Source: Candidatus Eiseniibacteriota bacterium
Lineage (GTDB): Bacteria; Eisenbacteria; RBG-16-71-46; JABDJR01; JAWXBZ01
Assembly: GCA_034440375.1 (NCBI GenBank)
Contig: JAWXBZ010000161.1
Location: 1-11,095, forward strand
Direction of reading: 5' to 3'
Length of the DNA stretch: 11,095 nucleotides
Below the pieces are notes generated by a model. That model worked only from the letters and a program-made list of their open reading frames with translations. It did not search any database and was not told where the DNA came from. Shown in pieces: positions 1-11,095 of the stretch (its first letter is position 1; the number at the start of each line of letters is the position of its first letter). Position numbers and translations under genes: made by a program.

Positions 1-430
1 GAAAGCAATCCGGCGCATTGTTCGAGAACGTCGGGTCCGGATCGCAGATATCCACGGCGCTGACGCCATTGAAGAAGTCGACCAGCTGCGGATCGGTCTC
101 CACCGTGCCGCAGTGTGAGCTGCATTCCACCGTGACCGCATCCGGGCAGGTGATCACCGGTGGCGTCGTATCGACCACCGTCACGGTCGCTTGACAGCTG
201 CTGGTCTTTCCGCACGCGTCAGTGGCGGTAAACGTCACCGTCGTCGGGCCGTCGGGGAAAAGGGCCGGCGCGTCGGTGGTGATGACCGGCGAGGGATCGA
301 AATCGTCGGAGGCGATGGCCCCGGCCAGGAAGGCGGCGATTTCGGTGTCAGTGGCCGGCGTGCCGTCGTACTCCGAGCACTCGACCACAATGTCGTCCGG
401 GCAGTCGATCGTCGGTGAGGCCGCATCGAA
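1..430 (-). repeat. Tandem HYR-like Ig-fold repeats in the peptidase (one complete at about 177-430, a second partial one cut by the edge)
   Basis: Both units begin D-x-x-x-P-x-I-x-C-P-D-x-x-x-V-E-C-S and share D-x-x-D-P-x-P-x-x-x-x-x-A-P-x-x-F. Confidence 0.8.
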
Positions 431-1990
431 CGTACAAATGGCCGCGCTCAGGTTCGGCCGGGGCCCGATGTTCTCGCTGGCCGGAAAGGTACCGGACTGC
501 TGCGCTGCCCCGGTGGACACCAGGAGTGTCCGCGCCACCGCTGGCGTGACAACCGAGCCAAACTCGCTCTCGTGCCATGACTCGAGCAACGCCACGGCTG
601 ACGTGACAATCGGGGAGGCTGATGATGTGCCACCGAAACTGTTGTCATACCAGAGATCCACGCCCTCGGCGCTGTAACCATCGCCGTATCCAGTCGTCCA
701 AACCCGCTGACCCCAGCCCTGCAGGTTTACGCGGGAGCCGTAGTTGGAAAAGTCGAGTCGCGAACGGTCCGTGTCGCTGCCGTTGAACGCGGCCGGAGCC
801 GCGCCGGCGCCGACAATGATGGCGCCCGAGTCGTTGGCCGGCAGGAACGGCCAGTGTCCGCCGTTGCCCACGCCGTACTCCGGCGCATCGAAGTTCTGGC
901 TGCCGTTCCCGGCGGCCTCGATGACGTGGATGCCGTTGCCGACGGCGGTGACGATGCTGCTGTACACCGCCAGGTCCCATTCGACAGCTATCAGACCGAA
1001 CTGCGACGTATTGTCGATGTAGTTCGGGCCCTGGATTTGTTGCTCGAATAGAACGCAGTCGCCCGCGCTCAAGCCCAGCAGCGCATTCTGGAAAGCTTCG
1101 TTGAGCAGGTAGCCATCCGTGAAGGACGTCGGGGCGACCCGGATCGTGGCACCGTAGGCACAGCCAGTCGTGCCGAATCCATTGTTCAGACTCGCGAGCT
1201 CACCGAGCACGGCCGTTCCGTGGTTGTTCTCCCCGAACGGGTCGTTCGCCGTCCGCCCCGGCGGGATGATCGTCGTGATAGCGGGAAGGTCGTCGTGATT
1301 GAGGTTCCAGGTGTATTCGAGGTCGACGATAACGACGTTCGAGCCGGTGCCACCCGGTAGCGTCCAGGCGAATTCCGCGTCGATGCCATCGGTCGTCGGA
1401 TCCAGGTAGCCCTGATTTGCCGTGAAATCGCCCGGGGTCGGCGGTGCCACCGGCAGGCGCAACGGGAATGCGAGTTCGACATCGTCGAGATCGTTCAGCT
1501 GCTCCATCCAGGTCGTGATGTCGATCTGGTCGGGCGCCTCGAGGATGAAAAAGTTGTTCAGGTCCGCAATCTCGCGGCCCAGATTGATTTCGGCCTTCCG
1601 ACGCAGGTCGTCCAGCACTGCCTCCGTGGCACCGGTATTCCGGCTCCATCGACCGCCGGCCGCCTGGATGCCGGTCATCGCAGCGATGGCCTGGCCGCTG
1701 TTGAGTGAGATGCGAGACCGATCGGTCGGAAATCCCGCCGCCTCGAGGCCGATGTTTAGATCGTCGATGAATTTGACCTGGCACCGTCGCGGATCGGAAC
1801 CGGGGGCCAGCTCAACCATTTCCGGTTTGATCAACTCGGGGCGGGGGTCGAGAAAGCCGGCTGTCTGGGACCATGCTGGTCCGGCGAAGGAGACCACGAT
1901 CGTCGCGATCGCCAGACCGATTGATGAACGGATCGGGGAAATGCGCGGCAGAGCCAGCAAATCGGACAAGACAATCGAACGCGTTCGCAT
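1..1990 (-). CDS. Secreted S8 (subtilisin-like) serine peptidase with C-terminal HYR-like repeats; 3' end lies beyond the left edge
   Basis: Manual translation from ATG at 1990 (RBS GGAGGT at 2002-1997) stays open to the window edge, so it is missing from the ORF track. Signal-peptide-like N-terminus (IGLAIATIVVSFAGPAWSQ). Catalytic Asp in VIVDLEY (1322-1324), His in NNHGTAVLG (1220-1222), oxyanion Asn in EAAGNG (905-907), Ser in GGTSSASP (623-625). Then PTIDCPDDIVVEC...TTVTFTATDACG and DTTPPVITCPDAVTVEC repeats. Confidence 0.93.
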   Translation of the reverse strand, partial: MRTRSIVLSDLLALPRISPIRSSIGLAIATIVVSFAGPAWSQTAGFLDPRPELIKPEMVELAPGSDPRRCQVKFIDDLNIGLEAAGFPTDRSRISLNSGQAIAAMTGIQAAGGRWSRNTGATEAVLDDLRRKAEINLGREIADLNNFFILEAPDQIDITTWMEQLNDLDDVELAFPLRLPVAPPTPGDFTANQGYLDPTTDGIDAEFAWTLPGGTGSNVVIVDLEYTWNLNHDDLPAITTIIPPGRTANDPFGENNHGTAVLGELASLNNGFGTTGCAYGATIRVAPTSFTDGYLLNEAFQNALLGLSAGDCVLFEQQIQGPNYIDNTSQFGLIAVEWDLAVYSSIVTAVGNGIHVIEAAGNGSQNFDAPEYGVGNGGHWPFLPANDSGAIIVGAGAAPAAFNGSDTDRSRLDFSNYGSRVNLQGWGQRVWTTGYGDGYSAEGVDLWYDNSFGGTSSASPIVTSAVALLESWHESEFGSVVTPAVARTLLVSTGAAQQSGTFPASENIGPRPNLSAAICTFDAASPTIDCPDDIVVECSEYDGTPATDTEIAAFLAGAIASDDFDPSPVITTDAPALFPDGPTTVTFTATDACGKTSSCQATVTVVDTTPPVITCPDAVTVECSSHCGTVETDPQLVDFFNGVSAVDICDPDPTFSNNAPDCF

Positions 1991-2271: not shown

Positions 2272-3855
2272 GTGCCCGAGGCCCGTCCACTTCCAGGCAG
2301 TCGTTTTTTCACCACGGACCACCAGGCCATCGCCCTTCGCTTTGGCCTGACGAGCCTCGCTTTCCTGCTCGTCGGTTTCCTCCTGATGCTCCTCATGCGC
2401 TGGCAACTGGCCTGGCCGGGACGCCCGATTCCGTTGATCGGCGGCCTCTTCCCCGATTCGCTGGCACCCGGCGGCATCCTTCTTCCCGAGTTTTACAACG
2501 CCCTTGGTGCGATGCACGGCTCGATCATGATCTTTCTCGGCGTCGTGCCGCTGGGCGCCGGAGCGTTCGGCAACTTCCTCGTGCCGCGGCTCATCGGCGC
2601 CGACACGATGGCTTTTCCGCGATTGACGGCCTGGTCGTACTGGATCTTTCTCGCTGCCGGCTTTGGATTCCTGGTGGGCTTCGTCGTCCCCGGCGGGCCG
2701 GCCAACTCCGGCTGGACCAGCTACCCGCCGTTGGCCACGCTCGGCACGCTCGGCCAGGACATCTGGCTGATCGGCATCCTGCTGCTTGGCCTGTCATCGA
2801 TGCTCGGCGCCGTGAACATGATCGTGACCGTCGTGCAGCTTCGCCGCCCCGGCCTCGGCTGGATGGATCTGCCGTTCTTTGTCTGGGCGCAGCTGATCAC
2901 CGCGCTCCTTTTGCTGCTCGCCTTTCCGCCACTGCAATCGGCGGCGGTCATGCAACTGATGGACCGCCTGGCCGACACCTCGTTCTTCTCGCCGGCCGGA
3001 TTGATCGTGGCCGCGCAGCCGCTCGGCGGCGCGGGTGGTGGGAGCCCCTTGTTGTGGCAACACCTCTTCTGGTTCCTGGCCCATCCGGAGGTGTACGTCC
3101 TGTTGCTGCCGGCGCTCGGCATCGTGTCGGAGATCCTGGCGGCCGGCACGGGACGACGCCTGTACGGCTATCGCTCGATCGTCGGCTCAACGCTGTTCCT
3201 CGGCGTCATGTCGCTGGTGGTCTGGGCGCACCACATGTTCCTGACCGGCATGGGCCCGGTCATGAGCGCCTTCTTCCAGGCCACCACCCTGATCATCTCG
3301 ATTCCGAGCGTCGTCATCCTGACCTGCTTCTTCCTGACGCTGAAGGGGGGGCGCCTGCCGATGACCACGTCGATGCTCTTCGCCCTTGGCTTCCTGCCGA
3401 TGTTCGGCATCGGCGGACTCACCGGCCTGCCACTCGGACTCGCGGTCGGCGACATCCACCTGCACGACACTTACTACGTGATTGGCCACTTCCACTACAT
3501 CGTGGCACCCGGCGTGCTGATCGCGCTCTTCGGCGGCATCTACCACTGGTGGCCGCTTGTGGCCGGCCGACCGCTGAATGATCGCCTCGGCCGGATCCAC
3601 TTCTGGGGCACGCTGATCGGCATGAACGGCATCTTCCTGCCGATGTTTGCCATGGGCCTGGCCGGCGTCAGCCGCCGCCTGTGGGATGCGGGCGCCGGTT
3701 ACGAACATGCGCAGAGCACCATCCACTTCAACTCGTTCATGACCTACTCGGCCTGGCTGGTCGCGATCGCGCAGGTTCCGTTCGTGTGGAATTTGGTCAT
3801 GAACCGGCCACGACGATCGACCGCCACGCCATGGCGCGTCGAAAGGACGTCATGA
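2272..3855 (+). CDS. ctaD: Heme-copper (cytochrome c) oxidase subunit I, A-family (A1-like HPEVY)
   Basis: Motifs TTDH, GAMHGSIMIF, GWTSYPPL, WFLAHPEVY, VWAHHMF, HLHDTYYVIGHFHY and GVSRR; about 12 hydrophobic segments. Start is uncertain: in-frame GTG at 2272 is preferred to TTG at 2128 because recognisable similarity begins at FTTDH. Confidence 0.95.
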   Translation: MPEARPLPGSRFFTTDHQAIALRFGLTSLAFLLVGFLLMLLMRWQLAWPGRPIPLIGGLFPDSLAPGGILLPEFYNALGAMHGSIMIFLGVVPLGAGAFGNFLVPRLIGADTMAFPRLTAWSYWIFLAAGFGFLVGFVVPGGPANSGWTSYPPLATLGTLGQDIWLIGILLLGLSSMLGAVNMIVTVVQLRRPGLGWMDLPFFVWAQLITALLLLLAFPPLQSAAVMQLMDRLADTSFFSPAGLIVAAQPLGGAGGGSPLLWQHLFWFLAHPEVYVLLLPALGIVSEILAAGTGRRLYGYRSIVGSTLFLGVMSLVVWAHHMFLTGMGPVMSAFFQATTLIISIPSVVILTCFFLTLKGGRLPMTTSMLFALGFLPMFGIGGLTGLPLGLAVGDIHLHDTYYVIGHFHYIVAPGVLIALFGGIYHWWPLVAGRPLNDRLGRIHFWGTLIGMNGIFLPMFAMGLAGVSRRLWDAGAGYEHAQSTIHFNSFMTYSAWLVAIAQVPFVWNLVMNRPRRSTATPWRVERTS

Positions 3856-4439
3856 CAAATCAGCCGATCCCCTATGCCAATGAGCCGCGCCCCGATACGG
3901 GCCTTCGAAACAACCGACTCGGCCTCTGGCTCGTCCTGGCCTCCGAGATCATGCTGTTCGCCGGTCTCTTCTCCGCGCTGGCCTTCCTGCGCATCGGCAG
4001 CACCGACTGGCCGACGAGCGCCCTCGAACATGGTCTTCCGCTGATCAACAGTTTTGTCGTCGCGGCCTCGGTGCTTGTTATCCTGTTTGCCGGCCGCGCC
4101 GTGACGCGCCATGAGGGAGAGTTTCGCCTCCTCTGGTCGCTTGGCCTGGGGCTCGGTCTTCTTGTTCTTTTCATTCGATCCGCCGAATGGTCGATTCTCC
4201 TTGGGATCGGGCGACTCCCTTCCACCCACAATCTTTTCGGTATTTATTTCGTGCTGACCGGCGTCCACGCCGTTCTGCTGGCGGGAAATCTGGCCGTCAA
4301 CGGCTGGATCCTCGTGACGGGCGCCTCGCTGGCCCGCCAGGATCCAGCCCGCCACCGCGAACGGGTGTACGGGGCCATCGTCCACTGGCTGGCGCTGGTG
4401 GTTGTCTGGTTCGCCATCATGATCGGATTTTTCGTGTGA
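3852..4439 (+). CDS. ctaE: Heme-copper oxidase subunit III, short form (195 aa)
   Basis: ATGA overlap with the subunit I stop, RBS GAAAGGA at 3841-3847; LGLWLVLASEIMLFAGLF, LINSFVVAAS and YFVLTGVH motifs. Confidence 0.9.
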   Translation: MTNQPIPYANEPRPDTGLRNNRLGLWLVLASEIMLFAGLFSALAFLRIGSTDWPTSALEHGLPLINSFVVAASVLVILFAGRAVTRHEGEFRLLWSLGLGLGLLVLFIRSAEWSILLGIGRLPSTHNLFGIYFVLTGVHAVLLAGNLAVNGWILVTGASLARQDPARHRERVYGAIVHWLALVVVWFAIMIGFFV

Positions 4440-4678
4440 TGAAGCGGCGCTTTCGCATCCGTCGGTATCACGCCCCGCCTGGCCTCGCGGTTGTCTGGCT
4501 GGTATGGCCCCTGAACGCCTACGCCTGCCCGGTTTGCTTCGGCGAACCGGACAGCAGCCAGACACGTGGCCTTCAGGCCGCCATTTTGCTGCTCGGCGGG
4601 GTCGCCGGCCTCCTCGTCACCGGCATTGCCGCGATGGTCTTCACGATTCGTCGCCGGGCCGGAAGAAACGCTCCATGA
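4439..4678 (+). CDS. Small (79 aa) membrane protein with AYA-CPVCFG motif
   Basis: TGATG coupling to subunit III and ATGA coupling to subunit II. Basic N-terminus, hydrophobic stretch, A-Y-A site, CPVC at 4526-4537, one transmembrane helix and an RRR tail. Confidence 0.8.
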   Translation: MKRRFRIRRYHAPPGLAVVWLVWPLNAYACPVCFGEPDSSQTRGLQAAILLLGGVAGLLVTGIAAMVFTIRRRAGRNAP

Positions 4679-5421
4679 CGCTACCCTGGCTGCCGCCGAG
4701 TCATGCGGCCGAGGGGCACCTCGTCGATGAAACACTTCTGCTGGTGCATCTCCTGATCGCGACCATCGTCATCGGATGGGCCATCTACTACGTCATCATG
4801 CTGGTCACGGGTCAGTCAAAACCATCCCGCGTGTCCGGTGGCGCGATCCCACCGGAATCGCGGTCATCGATTCCCATCCAAATCCCCTGGATCCTCGTCG
4901 GAGTGGTAGCCCTGGCCGAGGCCACCCTGTTCATCGGCAAGGAACTGCCGACCTGGGCGAAACTGCGCGTGGTGCCGCCCGAATCGGCTGAAGTGGTCCA
5001 CGTCCGCGTCGTGGCCGAGCAGTACGCGTGGAACGTGCACTATCCGGGCGCCGACGGCACCTTCGGCCGCACCGCGATCGACCTGGTGACGCAACTGAAT
5101 CCAGTCGGCCTCGACACACTGGACCGGGCCTCGCGCGACGACATCCTGACGATCAATCAATTGCACCTGCCGGTCGGGCGCCCCGCTATCATTGAACTAT
5201 CCAGCAAGGACGTCATCCACGCCTTCTTCCTGCCGGTGATGCGCGTCAAACAGGATGTGATTCCCGGCCATCGTGCCCGCGTCTGGTTCACGCCGATCGT
5301 CGAGGATACGACCGACATCGCCTGCGCCCAGCTCTGTGGTCTCGGGCACTACCGGATGAAGGGACAGTTGATCATCGAGAATGAGAAAGCCTGGCAGGCA
5401 TGGCTGACCGAAACGCGATGA
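4675..5421 (+). CDS. ctaC: Cytochrome c oxidase subunit II, CuA-containing (248 aa)
   Basis: ATGA overlap at 4675; two N-terminal transmembrane helices, AEQYAWNVHY, SKDVIHAFF, KQDVIPG and CuA motif CAQLCGLGHYRM (5323-5358). No C-terminal CxxCH. Confidence 0.93.
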   Translation: MTLPWLPPSHAAEGHLVDETLLLVHLLIATIVIGWAIYYVIMLVTGQSKPSRVSGGAIPPESRSSIPIQIPWILVGVVALAEATLFIGKELPTWAKLRVVPPESAEVVHVRVVAEQYAWNVHYPGADGTFGRTAIDLVTQLNPVGLDTLDRASRDDILTINQLHLPVGRPAIIELSSKDVIHAFFLPVMRVKQDVIPGHRARVWFTPIVEDTTDIACAQLCGLGHYRMKGQLIIENEKAWQAWLTETR

Positions 5422-5435
5422 GGGGAATTCGGCCG

Positions 5436-6428
5436 ATGAACCTGAAACGGGTGTTGCTGATGACGCCCATGCTCTTCCTCGGATGCAGCACGCAGAAGGA
5501 GAACGGCCATCAGATGGAGCCGCCCCCAGCCGGGCAGCCGACCCTCTTCCCCCGCGTCGAACTGCGTTTGAACGAAATCGCCGGCGAGATGATCGAGGTC
5601 CGTCGCGACCTGCACCGTCATCCCGAACTTTCCGGCCAGGAAACGCGCACCGAAGGCGTCGTGGTCTCCCGGCTCCGTCGGCTCGGCCTCGAGGTATCGC
5701 CCGGCGTGGGCGGTCACGGCGTGATGGCCCGGCTAACCGGCGGCAAACCGGGGGGGACCGTGGCCATTCGCGCCGACATGGACGCCGTCCCCTCGAATGA
5801 TCCCGATCCGGTTGATTTTCGTTCCGAAACGCCCGGCGTACGCCACATCTGCGGCCACGACATTCATACAACGGTAGCGTTGGCGGTGGCGGAGGGCCTC
5901 GCGGCGGTGCAGGCCGATCTCAAGGGAAACGTGGTCTTCATCTTTCAACCCGCCGAGGAAAACGTGACCGGCGCCCGCGCCATGCTGGCAGCCGGCGCAC
6001 TCGATACCTGGCGGCCCGACGTCATCTTCGCCTTCCATACAGCGCCGCTCGAAGTCGGCACAATCGGCACCAAGCCCGGCATCCTTCTGGGGAGCCGCGG
6101 CACAACGGCCGACATCGCCGCGGGTGTCCCCGGCACGGCTCCGGGTGTAACCAATGACGCCGACCTCGAAAGCCGCACGCGCGACGTCATCCGTTCGGTC
6201 GTCGGCACGGACAATCTGTTCGTGCTCACCAGCGTCACCCCCGGCTTCAGCGAGGACTTCGGCCACTTCCAGGCACGGATACCGGGCGTCATGTACTACC
6301 TGGGCGTGTCGAACACGCCGGCCGGAACTGCCGGCATGCCCCACGCGGCAGACTATGTGGCTGACGAGGCCTCCATCCTGGTGGGAGCGCGGGTCATGAG
6401 CGCGCTGGTGCTGAACGAGCTCCAGTAG
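5436..6428 (+). CDS. M20 family amidohydrolase (Acy1/HipO-like), predicted lipoprotein
   Basis: HRHPELSGQE, RADMDA, HICGHDIH, FQPAEE, FAFH, SEDF and MPH motifs; lipobox-like LFLGC (Cys at 5484-5486). An alternative start at ATG 5418 overlaps the subunit II stop. Confidence 0.9.
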   Translation: MNLKRVLLMTPMLFLGCSTQKENGHQMEPPPAGQPTLFPRVELRLNEIAGEMIEVRRDLHRHPELSGQETRTEGVVVSRLRRLGLEVSPGVGGHGVMARLTGGKPGGTVAIRADMDAVPSNDPDPVDFRSETPGVRHICGHDIHTTVALAVAEGLAAVQADLKGNVVFIFQPAEENVTGARAMLAAGALDTWRPDVIFAFHTAPLEVGTIGTKPGILLGSRGTTADIAAGVPGTAPGVTNDADLESRTRDVIRSVVGTDNLFVLTSVTPGFSEDFGHFQARIPGVMYYLGVSNTPAGTAGMPHAADYVADEASILVGARVMSALVLNELQ

Positions 6429-6475
6429 CCGGACGTAGCAGCAATGCCGGTAAGATAGCCCTTAAGCGTTCGTTA

Positions 6476-6488
6476 TTTCAATAAGTTA
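6476..6488 (+). promoter_or_regulatory. IHF-like binding site just inside the left IR
   Basis: TTTCAATAAGTTA matches WATCAANNNNTTR with one mismatch; a weaker inverted copy lies at 6463-6475. Confidence 0.5.
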
Positions 6489-6546
6489 GCCCACCTTTAC
6501 CTCCGACTGCCGAGGCCGTTCTTCTTTTCGTTTGAGCCATTGTGAC

Positions 6547-6576
6547 TTGCATGGATGCATGTCTTACGGTTATAAA
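6547..6576 (+). promoter_or_regulatory. Putative sigma70 promoter for the IS ORFs
   Basis: TTGCAT (6547-6552), 18 nt, TATAAA (6571-6576) in an AT-rich patch; the -10 element is flanked by the inverted repeat TCTTAC (6562-6567) / GTAAGA (6580-6585). Confidence 0.45.
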
Positions 6577-6953
6577 TGTGTAAGATGAAGAACCTGACCG
6601 ATCGCCGTCGCCGCATTGCGAAGGCACTGCCACCATTCGAAGAGATCCTCCGGGGGAGCGTTGTCACGCGGTCGCTCTCCTGTGGCAAGCCCGGCTGCCG
6701 CTGCGCCGCGGGTGAACTTCATGACGCGACCTACCTCAGCGTCACCCTCTCCGGAGGCCGCACCGAGCAGATCTCTCTGCCGGCTCGGTTGGTTCCCCAG
6801 GCGAGGCGGTGGGTGGCCAATTACGTCAAGTGGTGGAAAGCCGTCGAAAAAGTGTCGGAGGTCAACCGACTGCTGCTGCGTGCGCTACGGGATGCGCCGG
6901 ATCCGCAACCCCGTTCCGGCGGACGGTCCGGGAAAAGAACCCGCAAGTCGTGA
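6576..6953 (+). CDS. IS-associated small basic protein, DUF6788-like
   Basis: ILRGSV...CGKPGCRC...H...YLS...GRT...W..NY pattern; lies inside the IRs and is coupled to the transposase by TGATG. True start may be ATG 6585. Confidence 0.8.
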   Translation: MCKMKNLTDRRRRIAKALPPFEEILRGSVVTRSLSCGKPGCRCAAGELHDATYLSVTLSGGRTEQISLPARLVPQARRWVANYVKWWKAVEKVSEVNRLLLRALRDAPDPQPRSGGRSGKRTRKS

Positions 6954-8325
6954 TGACTTCCTCAAGAGGAGGCGCGGAGGCACTGGGTCAAGTACTGCTG
7001 GGCGTCGGGGCTGGAGAGCGGCCGGAGAGCTTCGAACTGTTCTCCAAGCACCTGGATCCGGAGTGGATCCAACGGGCCTTGCAGAACACGGGTACGGCGA
7101 CCGTGCGGCGGCGGAAGCTGCCGGCAGAGTATGTCGTGTGGATCGCCATCGGCATGGGACTCTTCCGTGACCGTTCCATCCAGGAGGTAGTCCGGCACCT
7201 CGATCTGGTTGTGCCGGACGGGGACTCCGGAAGGAATCGACGCGGCGTCACAGGTAGTGCCGTGGCACAGGCCCGGAACCGCCTCGGGGCTGAGCCTCTG
7301 GCGGAGTTGTTTACCCAGACGGGAGCCGTGTGGGCCGGCGCTTCGGCCGACGAGCATCGCTGGCGCGGGCTTTCGGTGTACGGCGTGGATGGATCGATGC
7401 TGCGGATCGCCGACACGCCCGAAAACGAGACGGCCTTTGGCCGGCCAGCCAGTAGCCGGGGGCGGGCCGGCTATCCGCAACTGCGCCTGGTGGTCCTCAT
7501 GGTGCTCCGCTCACACTTGTTGGCGGGGCTGGCGATGGGTCCCTGTATCGTTTCCGAGCAGGCGCTGACTGAGCCATTGTGGGACAAGCTTCCCGACTCG
7601 TCGCTGACCATCGTGGACCGCGGTTTTATCGCCTACCGGGTCTTCCATCGCATCCAGAGCCAGGGCGCCGACCGCCACTGGTTGACCCGAGCCAAGTCCA
7701 ATCTGAAAATGCGCGTCGTGAAGCACCTTGGACCTCATGATCATCTCGTTGAGCTACCCATCCTGCGCAGCGCGCGCCGGGCTCATCCAGAGCTACACGA
7801 GACCCTGACGGTTCGAGCCGTGCGCTACCACCGCCGCGGCTTCCGGGCGCAGACGCTACTCACATCCTTGCTCGATCCAGCCGCGTATCCGGCCTCAGAG
7901 ATCGCCGACCTGTATCACGAACGTTGGGAGCTGGAGATGGGCCTCGACGAGGTCAAGACACACACGCTCGAACGGGAGGAAGCGCTGCGCTGTCGCGCCC
8001 CCGAGCGTGTCCGCCAGGAACTCTGGGGACTTGCCATCGGATACAACCTCGTCCGCCTGGAGATGGAGCGCACGGCTGGGCGAGCCGGGGTACCGCCTCG
8101 ACGGATCAGCTATCGCCACACGCTGATGCTGATCCGAAACTTCTGGATCACCGCGTGGCTCACGAGTCCGGGGCCCTTCCAAACCGCCTCGACAGCCTGT
8201 TGGAGGAGCTCAATCTCTTGATCTTGCCCGAGCGTCGACAACGCAGTTACCCTCGGGCAGTCAAAATCAAGATGACCAACTACCCCTTGAAGCGGAAGGC
8301 CCGTGCGAAGCGAACCGTTAACTAA
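6953..8325 (+). pseudogene. IS4-family DDE transposase with a 1-bp frameshift at about 8170-8173
   Basis: YGVDGS, IVDRGF and YHERWELEMGLDEVK (YREK signature). The first frame stops at 8221, but the IS4-type C-terminus (LILPERRQRSYPRAVKIKMTNYP) continues in the -1 frame to TAA at 8323-8325 inside the right IR. Confidence 0.85.
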
Positions 8326-8903
8326 CCGGCATTGTCTTTAGCTGCTTCGCTCTCGCGGCAAGTTCCTTTTGGCGGGCGTCAAGAACATAGACCTTCTCGA
8401 GAATACCTTCGAGCACGTCCATGACAGTAACGAGGTCATTCTCGTTCGGCCGAAATCCTCGATGCGCCGACGCGTTTCCGGCTTCAGTGAGTACCTCCAG
8501 CAAATCGCGTTCGTGCGGCGTAACATGCCCAGCGCCTTGAAGCGCGTCCAACTTGGCCTGGAAGGTCTTTAGGTCGCCAAGCTTGTCGAGAGCAAGAATG
8601 TCGAGAGTGGTGCGCGCGCCCACTGCGGCAAGGACCCTAGTTCCGTTCTGCAAAGCCACGTAAACCTCGTCGAGTATTTCTTGGAGGTTCTTAGGCAACG
8701 AGCCCACCCATTTGGGCCGCTGACGAAACTCATGAGGCGGAAAGTATTTGTCCTCGAAGACGAGCGGTTCGTTTGGCGCGAAGGTCGGCCGGGTCGGAGC
8801 CCGACGATTCGGAAACGGCGAGCACGACGTGGTGGGTCTTCGTACCGCACTTGTTGCAGTGCAACATTCCGGCTGGTTTTGGTGCCGCTTCCGTTTCAGC
8901 CAT
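8318..8903 (-). pseudogene. DUF4145-like (HEPN-type) protein, frameshifted and 3'-truncated by the IS
   Basis: ATG at 8903 with AGGA upstream gives MAETEAAPKPAGMLHCNKCGTKTHHVVL, stopping at 8730. A second frame carries YFPP...RPKW and the helical domain with EAGNASAH. The last codons and the stop lie within the IS right IR. Confidence 0.75.
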
Positions 8904-8919
8904 GCCCTATTCCTGTGAG

Positions 8920-9285
8920 TTACGCCTTCCTGAGGCGCATGCTTCCGGCCTCAAGGATGACGAGGCTTCCCCTGAGCTCATTGGGGTCGACCGCCGAAAT
9001 GGCGGCCACAACTAGACGGACTTGCTCTCCGATAACCATTTTGTTCGGGAGCCTAACGCACACGACACCAGGATGGCTTCCAGCTGGGTACTGCGTGATG
9101 TCCGAGAAATCCTTGTCCTTCGAGATAATAATTAGCCCGCGGAGCTTGGCGTGGACCATGAGTTCCCCGTCGGAGAGACTCCTCAGGCGTTTGTCATTGG
9201 AGACGCTCTCGGCCTGGTGGCCAGCGGCTTTTAGGGCCTCAGCCAGGGCGCCGGGCAGGTTTTCGTCGACGAGGAATGCCGGCAT
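8920..9285 (-). CDS. DUF5615 family PIN-like putative toxin (VapC45-like)
   Basis: FLVDENLP, LSDGEL and IISKDKDF acidic PIN-like motifs plus HPGVVCVR; 121 aa; start directly abuts the DUF433 stop. Confidence 0.88.
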   Translation of the reverse strand: MPAFLVDENLPGALAEALKAAGHQAESVSNDKRLRSLSDGELMVHAKLRGLIIISKDKDFSDITQYPAGSHPGVVCVRLPNKMVIGEQVRLVVAAISAVDPNELRGSLVILEAGSMRLRKA

Positions 9286-9513
9286 TTAGCTAACTTGCCG
9301 GACTTCTTCCCCTGAGACCACGCTCGCTGCGTAGGAGATTGCGGCGAGCACGTCCTCGCGCTCCAGCCGGTACTCCTCCATTACCCGCTCTATCGGCTCG
9401 CCAGCGGCGAGCACACCCAGGATGACCTCGACGGGCACGCGAGTCCCCTCAATGACAGGCTTTCCGGCCTGCACCTTATTATCAACGACAATTCGTGTAG
9501 CTATCTGCATCAT
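9286..9513 (-). CDS. DUF433 family putative antitoxin (VapB45-like)
   Basis: GKPVIEGTRVPVEVIL...EEY.LEREDVLAAISYA signature; RBS AGGAG at 9525-9521. Confidence 0.92.
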   Translation of the reverse strand: MMQIATRIVVDNKVQAGKPVIEGTRVPVEVILGVLAAGEPIERVMEEYRLEREDVLAAISYAASVVSGEEVRQVS

Positions 9514-9543
9514 CTTCGCTCTCCTAGAAACTTTACAACTACA

Positions 9544-9572
9544 AGCATACCAGCATCTTGCGAGGATGGGAA
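9544..9572 (-). promoter_or_regulatory. Putative promoter of the toxin-antitoxin operon
   Basis: Minus strand TTCCCA (9572-9567), 17 nt, TATGCT (9549-9544) with an extended -10 TG; imperfect palindrome CATCTTGCGAGGATG at 9554-9568. Confidence 0.35.
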
Positions 9573-9756
9573 CCTAACCTTTCAAACTCCATATCCACTT
9601 TGCCATTATGAGATCCCTCACTTGTGGCCTGAGCGGCCTTCAAGGGGTCAAGCTGAGCCGCTAACCGCCCGACGTACTACGCACCACGCTTCTGTTTTGC
9701 GACGGCCTGGATAGGCCGCCGCCCGCGGCTTTGTGTTCCCAACGAAGGAGAATCGC

Positions 9757-9900
9757 ATGAGAAACCTCGAAGTCAGCCCGGTAACGGACCTGTGCTGTCC
9801 AAACACCGGCCGGTACCACGGCTGCCTAAGCCACCTTCTCGGGACCGATGAGCGCTTCTGCAGGCTTTGCGGCGTTGGCTTCCAGAAGTTCCACAAATGA
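9757..9900 (+). CDS. Small Cys-rich, zinc-ribbon-like protein (47 aa)
   Basis: AAGGAG at 9745-9750, 6 nt before ATG; MRNLEVSPVTDLCCPNTGRYHGCLSHLLGTDERFCRLCGVGFQKFHK. Not in the ORF track because it is short. Confidence 0.55.
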   Translation: MRNLEVSPVTDLCCPNTGRYHGCLSHLLGTDERFCRLCGVGFQKFHK

Positions 9901-9980
9901 AGGTTACACCCGGCTCAAAACCGTGGCCACCATTCCGCTGGATGTGCCGGAACGGTTTAGGCCGCCTCGCGGGTAGGGCG

Positions 9981-11095
9981 TTACTGGTTGGCGATATGGA
10001 TTGTTGAGCCGGTCTCGTTGACTGTTGCCAGGGTAAGGCGGGAGAGATACTGGCGGGTGACGCGGCAATCCCCACTGCCGTCATCGGGAACGGTATTCCA
10101 GCTCAATCCTTCCCACTTACTGATGCTACCGGGGTTGTCTTTCGCTTGAGGCTCATCAATTGCGCCGCCGGCGTAGATTTCGTCGTTGATGACGACCAGC
10201 GATTGGACCCGGTCGAGATCTTCCAGCCCCTCCCCCAGCGCCAGCCAGGACACACCGATCCACCGTGCCACGTGGTTCATTTCGAAGCCGTTGACGGTGA
10301 TGAAATCACCCCCGGCGATCAGCGCTCCGCGGTAGGTGGTGAGGGCGCGGACGGTGCCGTCGATGCCGACGTCCAGGGGTAGCCAGGTGGTGCCGTTCCA
10401 CCTTGCGATGTGGTTGGCGGGTTGTCCGCCGGCTTGGGTGAAGGCGCCGCCGGCGAAGAGTTGGTCCGCACTTTCGTGGAGGGCGTAGACGGTGCTGTTG
10501 ATGCCGGCGCCGAGGGGGTGCCAGTTCGTGCCGTCCCACTGGGCGATACGGGTGGCGGGTTGGCCGCCGGCTTCGGTGAAGCTGCCGCCGGCATACAGGG
10601 TGTTGTCGCCGTCGGTGGCCAGGGCGTACACGATGCCGGTGATGCCCCAGCCTTGATCCGGCTCGCCCAGCGGGTGCCACTCTTTTCCATCCCACCTTGC
10701 AATGCCGCTGGCGCGGATGGGGCCGATGTAGGTGAAGGCGCCGGCGACGATCAGATCGCCCCGGAAAATGGTCATGGCGTGGACGGTGCCGTTGGGTTCG
10801 GGACTGATGTCGTACCAGGTGCCGGCGGCGTCGGTGATCTGGGAGATTTCCTGCCAGATCTCCGGGTGGGTGTTCCGCTCGCCGGGATCGGCGTAGGCGG
10901 CCAGGTGGTTCACCTCTTCGTCCGGGCCGAACGGGTCGACGACGTTGAATTCGCCGCCGAAGATGAGGCGGCCTTTGTACTCCTGCAGCGCGTAAATGGG
11001 AGCGTCGGTGCTGCCAAGTCGCTGCCAGGAATCCGGTGGGTCGTCTTCGGAGCAGCCGATCGCACATATAATGAGGGCTGGTGCGAGCCGGCTGA
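9981..11095 (-). CDS. Beta-propeller repeat protein, predicted lipoprotein; start lies beyond the right edge
   Basis: The frame of ORF 9981..10913 stays open to the edge (SRLAPALIICAIGCSEDDPPDSWQRLG...), with a lipobox-like Cys at 11052-11054. About six repeats of V-x-A-L...L-x-x-G-G-x-F-T...I-A-R-W-D-G-x-x-W-x-P-L-G. Confidence 0.85.
   Translation of the reverse strand, partial: SRLAPALIICAIGCSEDDPPDSWQRLGSTDAPIYALQEYKGRLIFGGEFNVVDPFGPDEEVNHLAAYADPGERNTHPEIWQEISQITDAAGTWYDISPEPNGTVHAMTIFRGDLIVAGAFTYIGPIRASGIARWDGKEWHPLGEPDQGWGITGIVYALATDGDNTLYAGGSFTEAGGQPATRIAQWDGTNWHPLGAGINSTVYALHESADQLFAGGAFTQAGGQPANHIARWNGTTWLPLDVGIDGTVRALTTYRGALIAGGDFITVNGFEMNHVARWIGVSWLALGEGLEDLDRVQSLVVINDEIYAGGAIDEPQAKDNPGSISKWEGLSWNTVPDDGSGDCRVTRQYLSRLTLATVNETGSTIHIANQ

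Follow-up and report, generated by a model that had tools for sequence, protein, structure and literature searches.

A lysine-less A-family oxidase with an eroded D-channel, and a candidate proton route at the interface of subunits I and II

The stretch of DNA analysed here, which we call the window, is 11,095 nucleotides long and comes from a Candidatus Eiseniibacteriota bacterium (contig JAWXBZ010000161.1, assembly GCA_034440375.1). It carries coxA, the gene for subunit I of an A1-type heme-copper oxidase in which the lysine of the K-channel (K362 in Rhodobacter sphaeroides numbering) is replaced by isoleucine. As judged from the alignments, this loss is common to a large, conserved, multi-phylum clade of A1-type enzymes; what the window adds is that D-channel residues have been lost as well. 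We tentatively suggest that it encodes an A-family oxidase without either textbook channel, served by a third proton route made of a subunit II glutamate and the hydroxyls of helix VIII.

Absence of the K-channel lysine

2272 to 3855, forward strand: coxA, subunit I of an A1-type heme-copper oxidase, 527 residues, member of the lysine-less clade (Pfam COX1, E 3e-127)
3316 to 3318, forward strand: Ile349 (ATC), at the position of K362 (bovine K319)

The best NCBIfam match of CoxA is CtaD_CoxA, at 514.6 bits and below the cut-off of 670.75. A fold search with a predicted model matched the R. sphaeroides oxidase (Z 42.6, root-mean-square deviation 3.1, 489 residues aligned); this single-chain AlphaFold model, which has a predicted local distance difference test (pLDDT) value of 74 and low confidence at residues 251-273 and 382-407, was used for the fold search only. 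The start of the protein is backed by the homologues P0273 (527 residues) and P0003, the latter 92% identical to CoxA of the window.

Helix VIII, encoded at 3289-3330, reads LIISIPSVVILTCF. A preliminary description of this DNA had noted the absence of the lysine by eye, and a gapless alignment to bovine subunit I bears it out, placing Ile349 opposite bovine K319. (The R. sphaeroides numbers used for subunit I are what we take to be the equivalents of bovine positions.) That description had also pointed out that a lysine elsewhere might occupy the channel position. However, the only lysine in all 527 residues is K358, which sits at the cytoplasmic end of helix VIII and is mostly Trp or Tyr in relatives, so substitution by another lysine can be rejected. 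An assembly error was likewise rejected, because the window and contigs of run X4 agree at every base over 3046-3498. The canonical A1 K-channel comprises Lys354, Thr351, Ser291 and Tyr280 in Paracoccus denitrificans numbering (PMC3084760, Table 2); in the window protein the lysine is Ile349 and the threonine is Ser346. The K-channel residue Ser286 is retained there and is mostly Ala or Gly across the clade.

The loss is not peculiar to one strain. All 119 of the nearest homologues lack the lysine (115 have Ile, 3 Leu and 1 Val), and so do all 113 homologues from a second search that used a divergent member as the query, each again with Ile, Leu or Val. Strain-specific decay of the lysine is thereby rejected, and the conserved lysine-less clade that the preliminary description had proposed is upheld.

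The clade was defined as the rows whose identity to the window protein is 48.5% or more, 209 of the 345 aligned rows, a line that takes in the window and the fragments, leaves out L004, and agrees with the trees. In FastTree the clade is monophyletic (92 of 92), with a support of only 0.756 at its base; in a quick IQ-TREE run of 63 rows it forms one side of a branch with a Shimodaira-Hasegawa approximate likelihood-ratio test (SH-aLRT) value of 100. The closest matches of the window protein are all A-family, and the clade nests among A-family rows in trees that were midpoint-rooted, with no B- or C-family outgroup. Three loci with a coxA split across several frames (L066, L084, L100) were excluded from full-length counts or trees. 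Other residues near the channel have changed as well: W366 is lost in 209 of 209 clade rows, and Ser299 of the K-channel is Ser in only 8 of 209, versus 93 of 95 lysine-bearing controls.

A motif scan of GTDB DNA found at least 119 lysine-less loci, of which 80 carry titles; these span Acidobacteriota, Verrucomicrobiota, Planctomycetota, Marinimicrobia, Bacteroidota/Ignavibacteria/Rhodothermales, Omnitrophota, Myxococcota and Latescibacterota. Because the loci were chosen by a lysine-less motif, they show the range of the clade, not conservation of the lysine site. L061, a Methylacidiphilales locus, belongs to the clade, a cultured carrier is Rhodocaloribacter litoris (P0048), and a genome of the host's class (G202) has two copies of the clade enzyme (L221, L222). 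Outside the clade the lysine is missing from a further 41 of 136 rows, which belong to several unrelated lineages. One such second lineage (L004, L006, L007, P0137, P0185), present in relatives of the host, has a WAHHQ motif and Thr, Met, Leu or Ile in place of the lysine; some of its members have a Glu one residue ahead of the lysine position and an Asp in helix II of subunit II.

Subunit II and its contacts with subunit I

4675 to 5421, forward strand: coxB, CuA-type subunit II, 248 residues, no cytochrome c domain (Pfam COX2, alignments)
4918 to 4920, forward strand: Glu82(II), a buried acid at the P108 position and candidate replacement for the lysine (alignment; in the modelled interface)
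4897 to 4899, forward strand: Val75(II), at the position of E101, the K-channel entry (acid in the clade: Glu in 86 and Asp in 3 of 92)
4747 to 4749, forward strand: His25(II), helix I, clade-specific, with a modelled contact to Pro387 of subunit I
3277 to 3324, forward strand: polar stripe of helix VIII, with Q336, T338, S343 (A356 position), S346 (T359 position) and T351 (F364 position), drawn from clade conservation

CoxB has the ligands of a CuA subunit II (H182, C217, C221, H225, M228), with Gln219 where the CuA loop usually has Glu; ba3 oxidases also have Gln in this loop. Conservation in the two subunits was counted over 97 clade loci with both subunits and 35 lysine-bearing loci. At the P108 position of subunit II, an acid is present in all 93 clade loci that have the residue (Glu in 92, Asp in 1) and in 0 of the 35 lysine-bearing loci. 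It lies seven residues past E101, and a profile alignment to 2gsm/1m56 confirms the register of both positions; P108 itself we take to be adjacent to the tail of heme a3.

This acid does not stand alone. His25(II), in the periplasmic third of helix I, is found in 92 of 92 clade loci versus 0 of 35 controls, and Trp35(II) in 92 of 92. In subunit I, the clade has Thr or Ser at position 351 in 97 of 97 loci (0 of 35 lysine-bearing controls), S343 and P387 in 97 of 97 each, and Q336 in 94 of 97. Glu82(II) and Val75(II) of the window are unchanged in contigs of runs X7, X15 and X18. A predicted complex of subunits I and II places E82, H25 and W35 of subunit II and Q336, S343 and T351 of subunit I in the interface; I349 and S346 are not named there. 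The model scored 0.91 (best control, 0.01), with contact agreement between runs of at least 92% and a partner pLDDT of 84, and its mark is reached by 116 of 157 solved pairs and 2 of 215 mismatched pairs. Because the pair resembles solved complexes, such a pass shows likeness only, and just the list of residues is used here.

The second lysine-less lineage offers a comparison. All three of its loci L004, L006 and L007 have an Asp in helix II of subunit II, 11 residues before the Trp that ends the helix (the clade acid is 12 before), and their lysine-bearing relative L005 has none. On alignment this Asp would lend weak independent support to the idea of a subunit II acid.

Erosion of the D-channel in the window's branch

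2602 to 2628, forward strand: eroded entry of the D-channel, with D111, T112 (D132 position) and T119 (N139 position), by alignment to bovine D91 and N98
2341 to 2343, forward strand: Phe24, at the D-channel Y33 (bovine Y19) position, by alignment; Tyr in 184 of the 184 main-clade rows with a residue there

In the window protein Thr112 (2605-2607) aligns to bovine D91, the equivalent of D132, with an Asp (D111) one residue before, and Thr119 (2626-2628) aligns to bovine N98, the equivalent of N139. The preliminary description had placed the D-channel Asp in a TDH motif, an assignment that does not hold, as TDH aligns to the STNHK motif in the H26 region. The canonical A1 D-channel consists of Asp124, Asn199, Asn113, Asn131, Tyr35, Ser134, Ser193 and Glu278 in P. 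denitrificans numbering (PMC3084760, Table 2). Three of these are replaced in the window (Asp124 by T112, Asn131 by T119, Tyr35 by F24) and the other five are retained. P0003 carries the same three changes. The main clade keeps the set, with Asp in 183 and Glu in 3 of 186 rows at the D132 position and N139 in 186 of 186. Of the changes seen here, N139T is a decoupling mutant, likewise N139D, according to the accessible part of a preprint (10.1101/040717), and the available text of PMC7196763 describes yeast N99D in the same terms.

The window protein belongs to a branch of 11 members (SH-aLRT 94, quick IQ-TREE), nine of which have lost N139 and eight both D132 and N139, with differing replacements. 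The second search added further members with an eroded D-channel (P0294-P0297, P0356, P0374, P0307). Over the stretch shown, P0004, P0006, P0125, L049, P0127 and P0294-P0297 lack an acid both at the D132 position and at the residue before it. In several of them N121 and N207 are gone too, although the active site and the residues of the interface are preserved. Q336, S343 and T/S351 are kept by 11 of 11 members, and those with DNA (the window, L049, L080) retain His25 and the acid at position 82 of subunit II. The catalytic residues (His ligands, Tyr, E286 and the RR pair) are kept across all 11, except for D407N in P0127 and one gap. In 173 of 186 main-clade proteins, position 222 (helix V) is occupied by a buried Glu; all 11 D-eroding members have Gln, Leu or Ala instead. 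This Glu may be part of the pump.

CoxA of the window differs at 17 of 197 clade-invariant sites, versus a mean of 1.0 in main members, and the changed sites concentrate in helices I-IV (12 of 64, versus 5 of 133 elsewhere; p 9e-4). Between the window and P0003 there are 0 differences at the 197 invariant columns and 37 at 300 variable ones (p 4e-9). A contig of run X16, taken as encoding P0003, has 213 base differences across coxA, which gives a ratio of nonsynonymous to synonymous substitution (dN/dS) of 0.06-0.13; this was estimated from the total difference count and is only rough, because a search of 206 genomes of the phylum and a metagenome scan (best, 65%) turned up no DNA of close relatives of the window. 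Taken together, these comparisons indicate that purifying selection acts on CoxA of the window, whose catalytic residues are all retained.

Active site and likely activity

3082 to 3096, forward strand: HPEVY, with the CuB ligand His271, Glu273 (E286) and the cross-linking Tyr275 (208 of 208 in the clade)

The six His ligands (H82, H271, H320, H321, H406, H408) and the helix VI Tyr (Y275) are all in place; HPEVY is preceded in the window by LA and not by FG. Together with the Asn residues of FGNF (N121) and GAVN (N207) and the RR pair, these had been listed in the preliminary description, and the view that the enzyme is an intact heme-copper oxidase is strengthened by the invariance of its catalytic residues, by purifying selection and by the conserved clade. 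The window enzyme is likely to reduce O2. The genomes point the same way. Among 50 genomes, drawn from the 80 titled loci, 14 have no COX1 match besides the lysine-less enzyme, and in 12 of those 14 no bd oxidase was matched either; completeness is not given for these genomes, and alternative oxidase was not searched for.

An identity as a nitric oxide (NO) reductase was rejected, for V274 and Y275 are invariant (208 of 208) and no Glu of the NO reductase type is present; such enzymes, in the accessible portion of PMC11214002, have no active-site Tyr and have a Glu ligand to the non-heme iron.

The proposed route of protons

The mechanism that we favor places the proton route along a rebuilt interface between subunits I and II. 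Protons would pass from the cytoplasm to Glu82(II) with Thr351, then to Ser343/Ser346, and on to Tyr275, with Glu82 as the lone buried titratable residue in the role that K362 has in the textbook enzymes. This route is favored because an enzyme without K362, E101, D132 and N139 still needs protons, and the only retained clade-specific polar set is that of the I/II interface. In the main clade the interface route would work beside an intact D-channel, and the main-clade enzymes therefore probably pump. In the window's branch the D-channel would have been released from selection, so that the window enzyme probably has weak pumping at best and acts as an auxiliary O2 sink beside the canonical caa3-alternative complex III (ACIII) supercomplex of the host. 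On a bolder and less likely reading, the third route arose in a multi-phylum clade and, in the window's branch, came to suffice, so that the D-channel could be given up; the enzyme would then be on its way, by convergence, to a single-channel state like that of the B-family. The parts of this proposal differ in strength. Loss of pumping in the branch is probable, passage of protons through Glu82(II) we regard as an even chance, and the whole, in which protons reach Tyr275 from Glu82(II) by way of Thr351 and Ser343/Ser346 and pumping in the branch is slight or absent, falls a little short of that.

Several observations weigh against this mechanism. The window has lost the entry Glu E101 to Val, where 89 of 92 clade members have an acid, which would weaken the cytoplasmic entry. 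Among the best pairs given by the model, E82 has no partner. Loss of the lysine and gain of Glu82 both map to one branch and so count as one event, not 93. In the same branch as the window, P0005 and L080 retain D132 and N139. The D-channel of the window may still conduct, because D111 adjoins the D132 position and N121, S142, S200, S201, N207 and E286 are kept. Two genes common in clade operons, coxD (79 of 85 clade loci) and a gene for a protein with two transmembrane helices (2-TM; 75 of 85), were not found in the host genome, and together with the diverged subunit III their absence could reflect early decay. Finally, the sole-oxidase counts carry the limits already given for those genomes.

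Alternatives to the interface route

The preliminary description had proposed that the enzyme uses the D-channel alone or an alternative route. The second of these is plausible; the first is unsupported for the window protein, because D132, N139 and Y33 are replaced. A broader form, in which all protons still take the D-channel, with Asp111 replacing D132, with N139T active and uncoupled and with Glu82(II) merely structural, seems unlikely, though it is the best of the rivals. It draws on the nearly perfect retention of the D-channel in the main clade, where the additional Glu of helix V could assist, and on D111 in the window, P0003 and P0123 beside the N121, N207, S200/S201 and E286 kept in the window. 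However, the proteins listed above without an acid in the D132 region keep the active site and the interface, and an invariant buried Glu, a His and three hydroxyl/amide residues are left unexplained. K362 is, moreover, necessary for proton delivery by the K-channel, according to the part of a review that is available (PMC10341450).

A second possibility, which we consider quite unlikely, is an O2 scavenger that is fed from outside and is not electrogenic. Here His25 and Glu82(II) would connect the active site to the periplasm, and little energy would be conserved. The invariance of His25 and its place in helix I fit such a route, the usual cytoplasmic entries (K362, E101(II), D132, N139) are missing from the window enzyme, and the host has its canonical caa3 available for energy conservation. 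Yet the cytoplasmic E101 acid persists in almost all clade members, and frequently no oxidase other than the clade enzyme was found, which for the main clade, at least, favors the conservation of energy.

Slightly less likely still is the "KC" type of channel described by Degli Esposti, in which serines at C-family K-channel positions (S306 and S314 of helix VII, and S346) would conduct within subunit I. Both S314 and S346 are found in 208 of 209 clade rows, and the fingerprint of the window equals a row classed in that scheme. Against it, S306 is Ala in 75 of 209 rows, S314 is also Ser in 19 of 95 lysine-bearing enzymes, the Tyr residues of the C-family are absent at the equivalent positions (E287, S314), and the published table ignores position 108 of subunit II.

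Shifted chemistry, which the preliminary description had raised in the form of peroxide, NO or low-rate O2 reactions, has found no positive support, and it is improbable that the enzyme reduces peroxide or NO or serves as a slow sensor that binds O2. In favor of such chemistry, turnover with H2O2 persists in R. sphaeroides K362M mutants. These mutants are blocked in the reductive phase, in the accessible part of PMC10341450, and the small CxxC protein of the operon is unexplained. The cross-linking Tyr, its neighboring Val and the CuB ligands are nevertheless invariant, with no NO reductase-type Glu in place of the Val; heme A/O synthases and a cupredoxin stand within the flanks of about half of the clade loci; and the clade enzyme is often the sole oxidase found (the sole one of heme-copper or bd type in 12 of the 50 genomes).

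Decay of the window copy as a redundant, degenerating paralogue, suggested by the changed invariant sites, the missing coxD and 2-TM genes, the diverged subunit III and the canonical caa3 of the host, is the least probable reading, since there are no stops or frameshifts, starts and stops are coupled by overlaps, P0003 shows no difference at the invariant sites and a rough dN/dS of about 0.1, the changes are concentrated in the D-channel helices with the active site left untouched, and a diverged 13-kb contig carries the operon in the same order.

Relation to known oxidases

Loss of the lysine is already catalogued, and the candidate replacement route is, as far as we have found, unpublished. 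The accessible portion of a survey by Degli Esposti (2021; PMC8239418, Supplementary Table S1 and the table of Fig. S7) defines a "KC channel" subclade of A1 enzymes in Elusimicrobia, Ca. Calescamantes and Methylacidiphilaceae. The window's fingerprint, YSISCEGISS, equals the row for Elusimicrobia MAG13 (NNN06642) at 10 of 10 positions, and by this fingerprint the clade described here is very probably the same subclade. The two share the change of Lys to Ile/Leu and of T351 to Ser; the MAG13 row keeps E78(II), where the window has Val. The table, in the part available, covers three phyla, reads the channel as C-family-like, and holds no P108 Glu or His25 of subunit II, no helix VIII hydroxyls and no D-channel erosion. 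The clade may thus be said to be already characterized only in part: loss of the lysine is very probably in print there, and no biochemical characterization was found in the accessible sources.

Lysine-less A-family enzymes are also known from acidophilic iron oxidizers, according to the accessible text of 10.1101/2020.03.01.968255. The oxidases of the Acidithiobacillus rus operon and its relatives share with the window the change of K354 to Ile and loss of E78 in subunit II; unlike the window protein, which has 12 helices and Ser at the T351 position, they keep the D-channel, have Thr at T351, are classed as A2, and in most subclades have two extra N-terminal helices. The available portion of a Ferrigenium preprint notes a K-channel-less oxidase and leaves it unexplained, and the part of PMC5900883 that is accessible does not discuss channels. 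In the literature searched, nothing was found on a P108 Glu of subunit II, on D-channel erosion in the clade or on a characterized member, although relevant material may exist in supplements that are closed and in papers behind a subscription.

Relative to the canonical A1 aa3 oxidases (R. sphaeroides 1M56/2GSM and its K362M mutant 3OM3; P. denitrificans 1AR1; bovine 1OCC), the window enzyme shares the fold, the six His, HPEVY, the RR pair, D407/H411/D412 and the CuA subunit II. It differs in having no K362, in loss of W366, in the changes E101(II) to Val, D132 to Thr, N139 to Thr and Y33 to Phe, in the new Glu82, His25 and Trp35 of subunit II and Q336, S343, T351 and P387 of subunit I, and in Gln for Glu in the CuA loop.

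Similarity to the B-family is only distant (E about 1e-12, versus 1e-96 for the A-family), and the B-type channel residues T312, Y244 and Y248 are presumably not at equivalent positions in the window protein. B-family enzymes have neither a D-channel nor E286 and use an alternative K-channel with Thr, Ser and Tyr (PMC3084760, Table 2), which in ba3 is the one K-like route, according to the accessible part of PMC8239185. The window protein keeps E286 (E273), has Ile at the Thr position and has no Tyr at the S291 position.

The operon, its neighbors and the host

3852 to 4439, forward strand: coxC, divergent short subunit III, 195 residues (weak QoxC/CtaE/CyoC matches; start overlaps the coxA stop)
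4439 to 4678, forward strand: small membrane protein with a CxxC-F-G motif (homologue in 72 of 85 clade loci; no Pfam match)

The genes lie in a coupled operon, in the order coxA (2272-3855), coxC (3852-4439), the small CxxC gene (4439-4678) and coxB (4675-5421), an order that recurs on the diverged 13-kb contig. CoxC, which has no Pfam COX3 match, is the most diverged subunit, being 35.7% identical to main-clade CoxC, versus 65.9% within the main clade. The small CxxC-F-G protein falls in unnamed Atlas clusters at 0.90-0.93, and the Atlas matches as a whole were to clusters with either no name or a generic one. In marker searches of the 85 clade loci with enough flank, coxC was found in 84, coxD in 79, the 2-TM gene in 75 and the CxxC gene in 72, and, within the flanks, a cupredoxin-like gene in 45, ctaB in 44 and ctaA in 43. 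The 2-TM protein of clade operons (L044, L030, L026, L101, L023 and L097 are among the loci with small unnamed membrane proteins) has no Pfam match.

The host genome is 93.7% complete. Its only other COX1 is a canonical A2 caa3 in an ACIII operon, and no bd oxidase match was found in it. A cupredoxin gene lies upstream of the lysine-less coxA, on the same strand, in 57 of 68 loci of other genomes; in the host it is on another contig, C173, where a separate cupredoxin-ctaA-ctaB module at about 5100-10800 (L226, L228) stands with an ATP-binding cassette transporter pair, followed by genes that resemble SCO and DUF420 by eye.

The remainder of the window holds the following genes.
2 to 1990, reverse strand: secreted subtilase (S8) with HYR-like repeats, truncated at the edge of the contig and oriented divergently to the cox operon
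5436 to 6428, forward strand: M20 amidohydrolase, 14 bases past coxB; it has a lipoprotein-like signal, falls short of the family model in length, and is not among the clusters conserved in clade loci
6576 to 8325, forward strand: a DUF6788 gene, then an IS4-family transposase that looks frameshifted, its C-terminus being in another frame near 8175
8318 to 8707: DUF4145 gene
8920 to 9513, reverse strand: DUF433 and DUF5615/PIN_10 gene pair, toxin-antitoxin-like

Significance

Why A-family oxidases have two proton channels, and whether K362 acts as a carrier or as an electrostatic helper, is a long-standing question that has been studied almost only with dead point mutants. The clade offers thousands of natural, selected lysine-less enzymes, in many cases the sole oxidase found in bacteria that abound in soil and in the sea. 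Should O2 reduction persist in an enzyme that lacks K362, E101, D132 and N139, a third proton route must exist. The answer also bears on assumptions about energy yield, as the clade enzymes are annotated as ordinary aa3 or mislabelled as cbb3.

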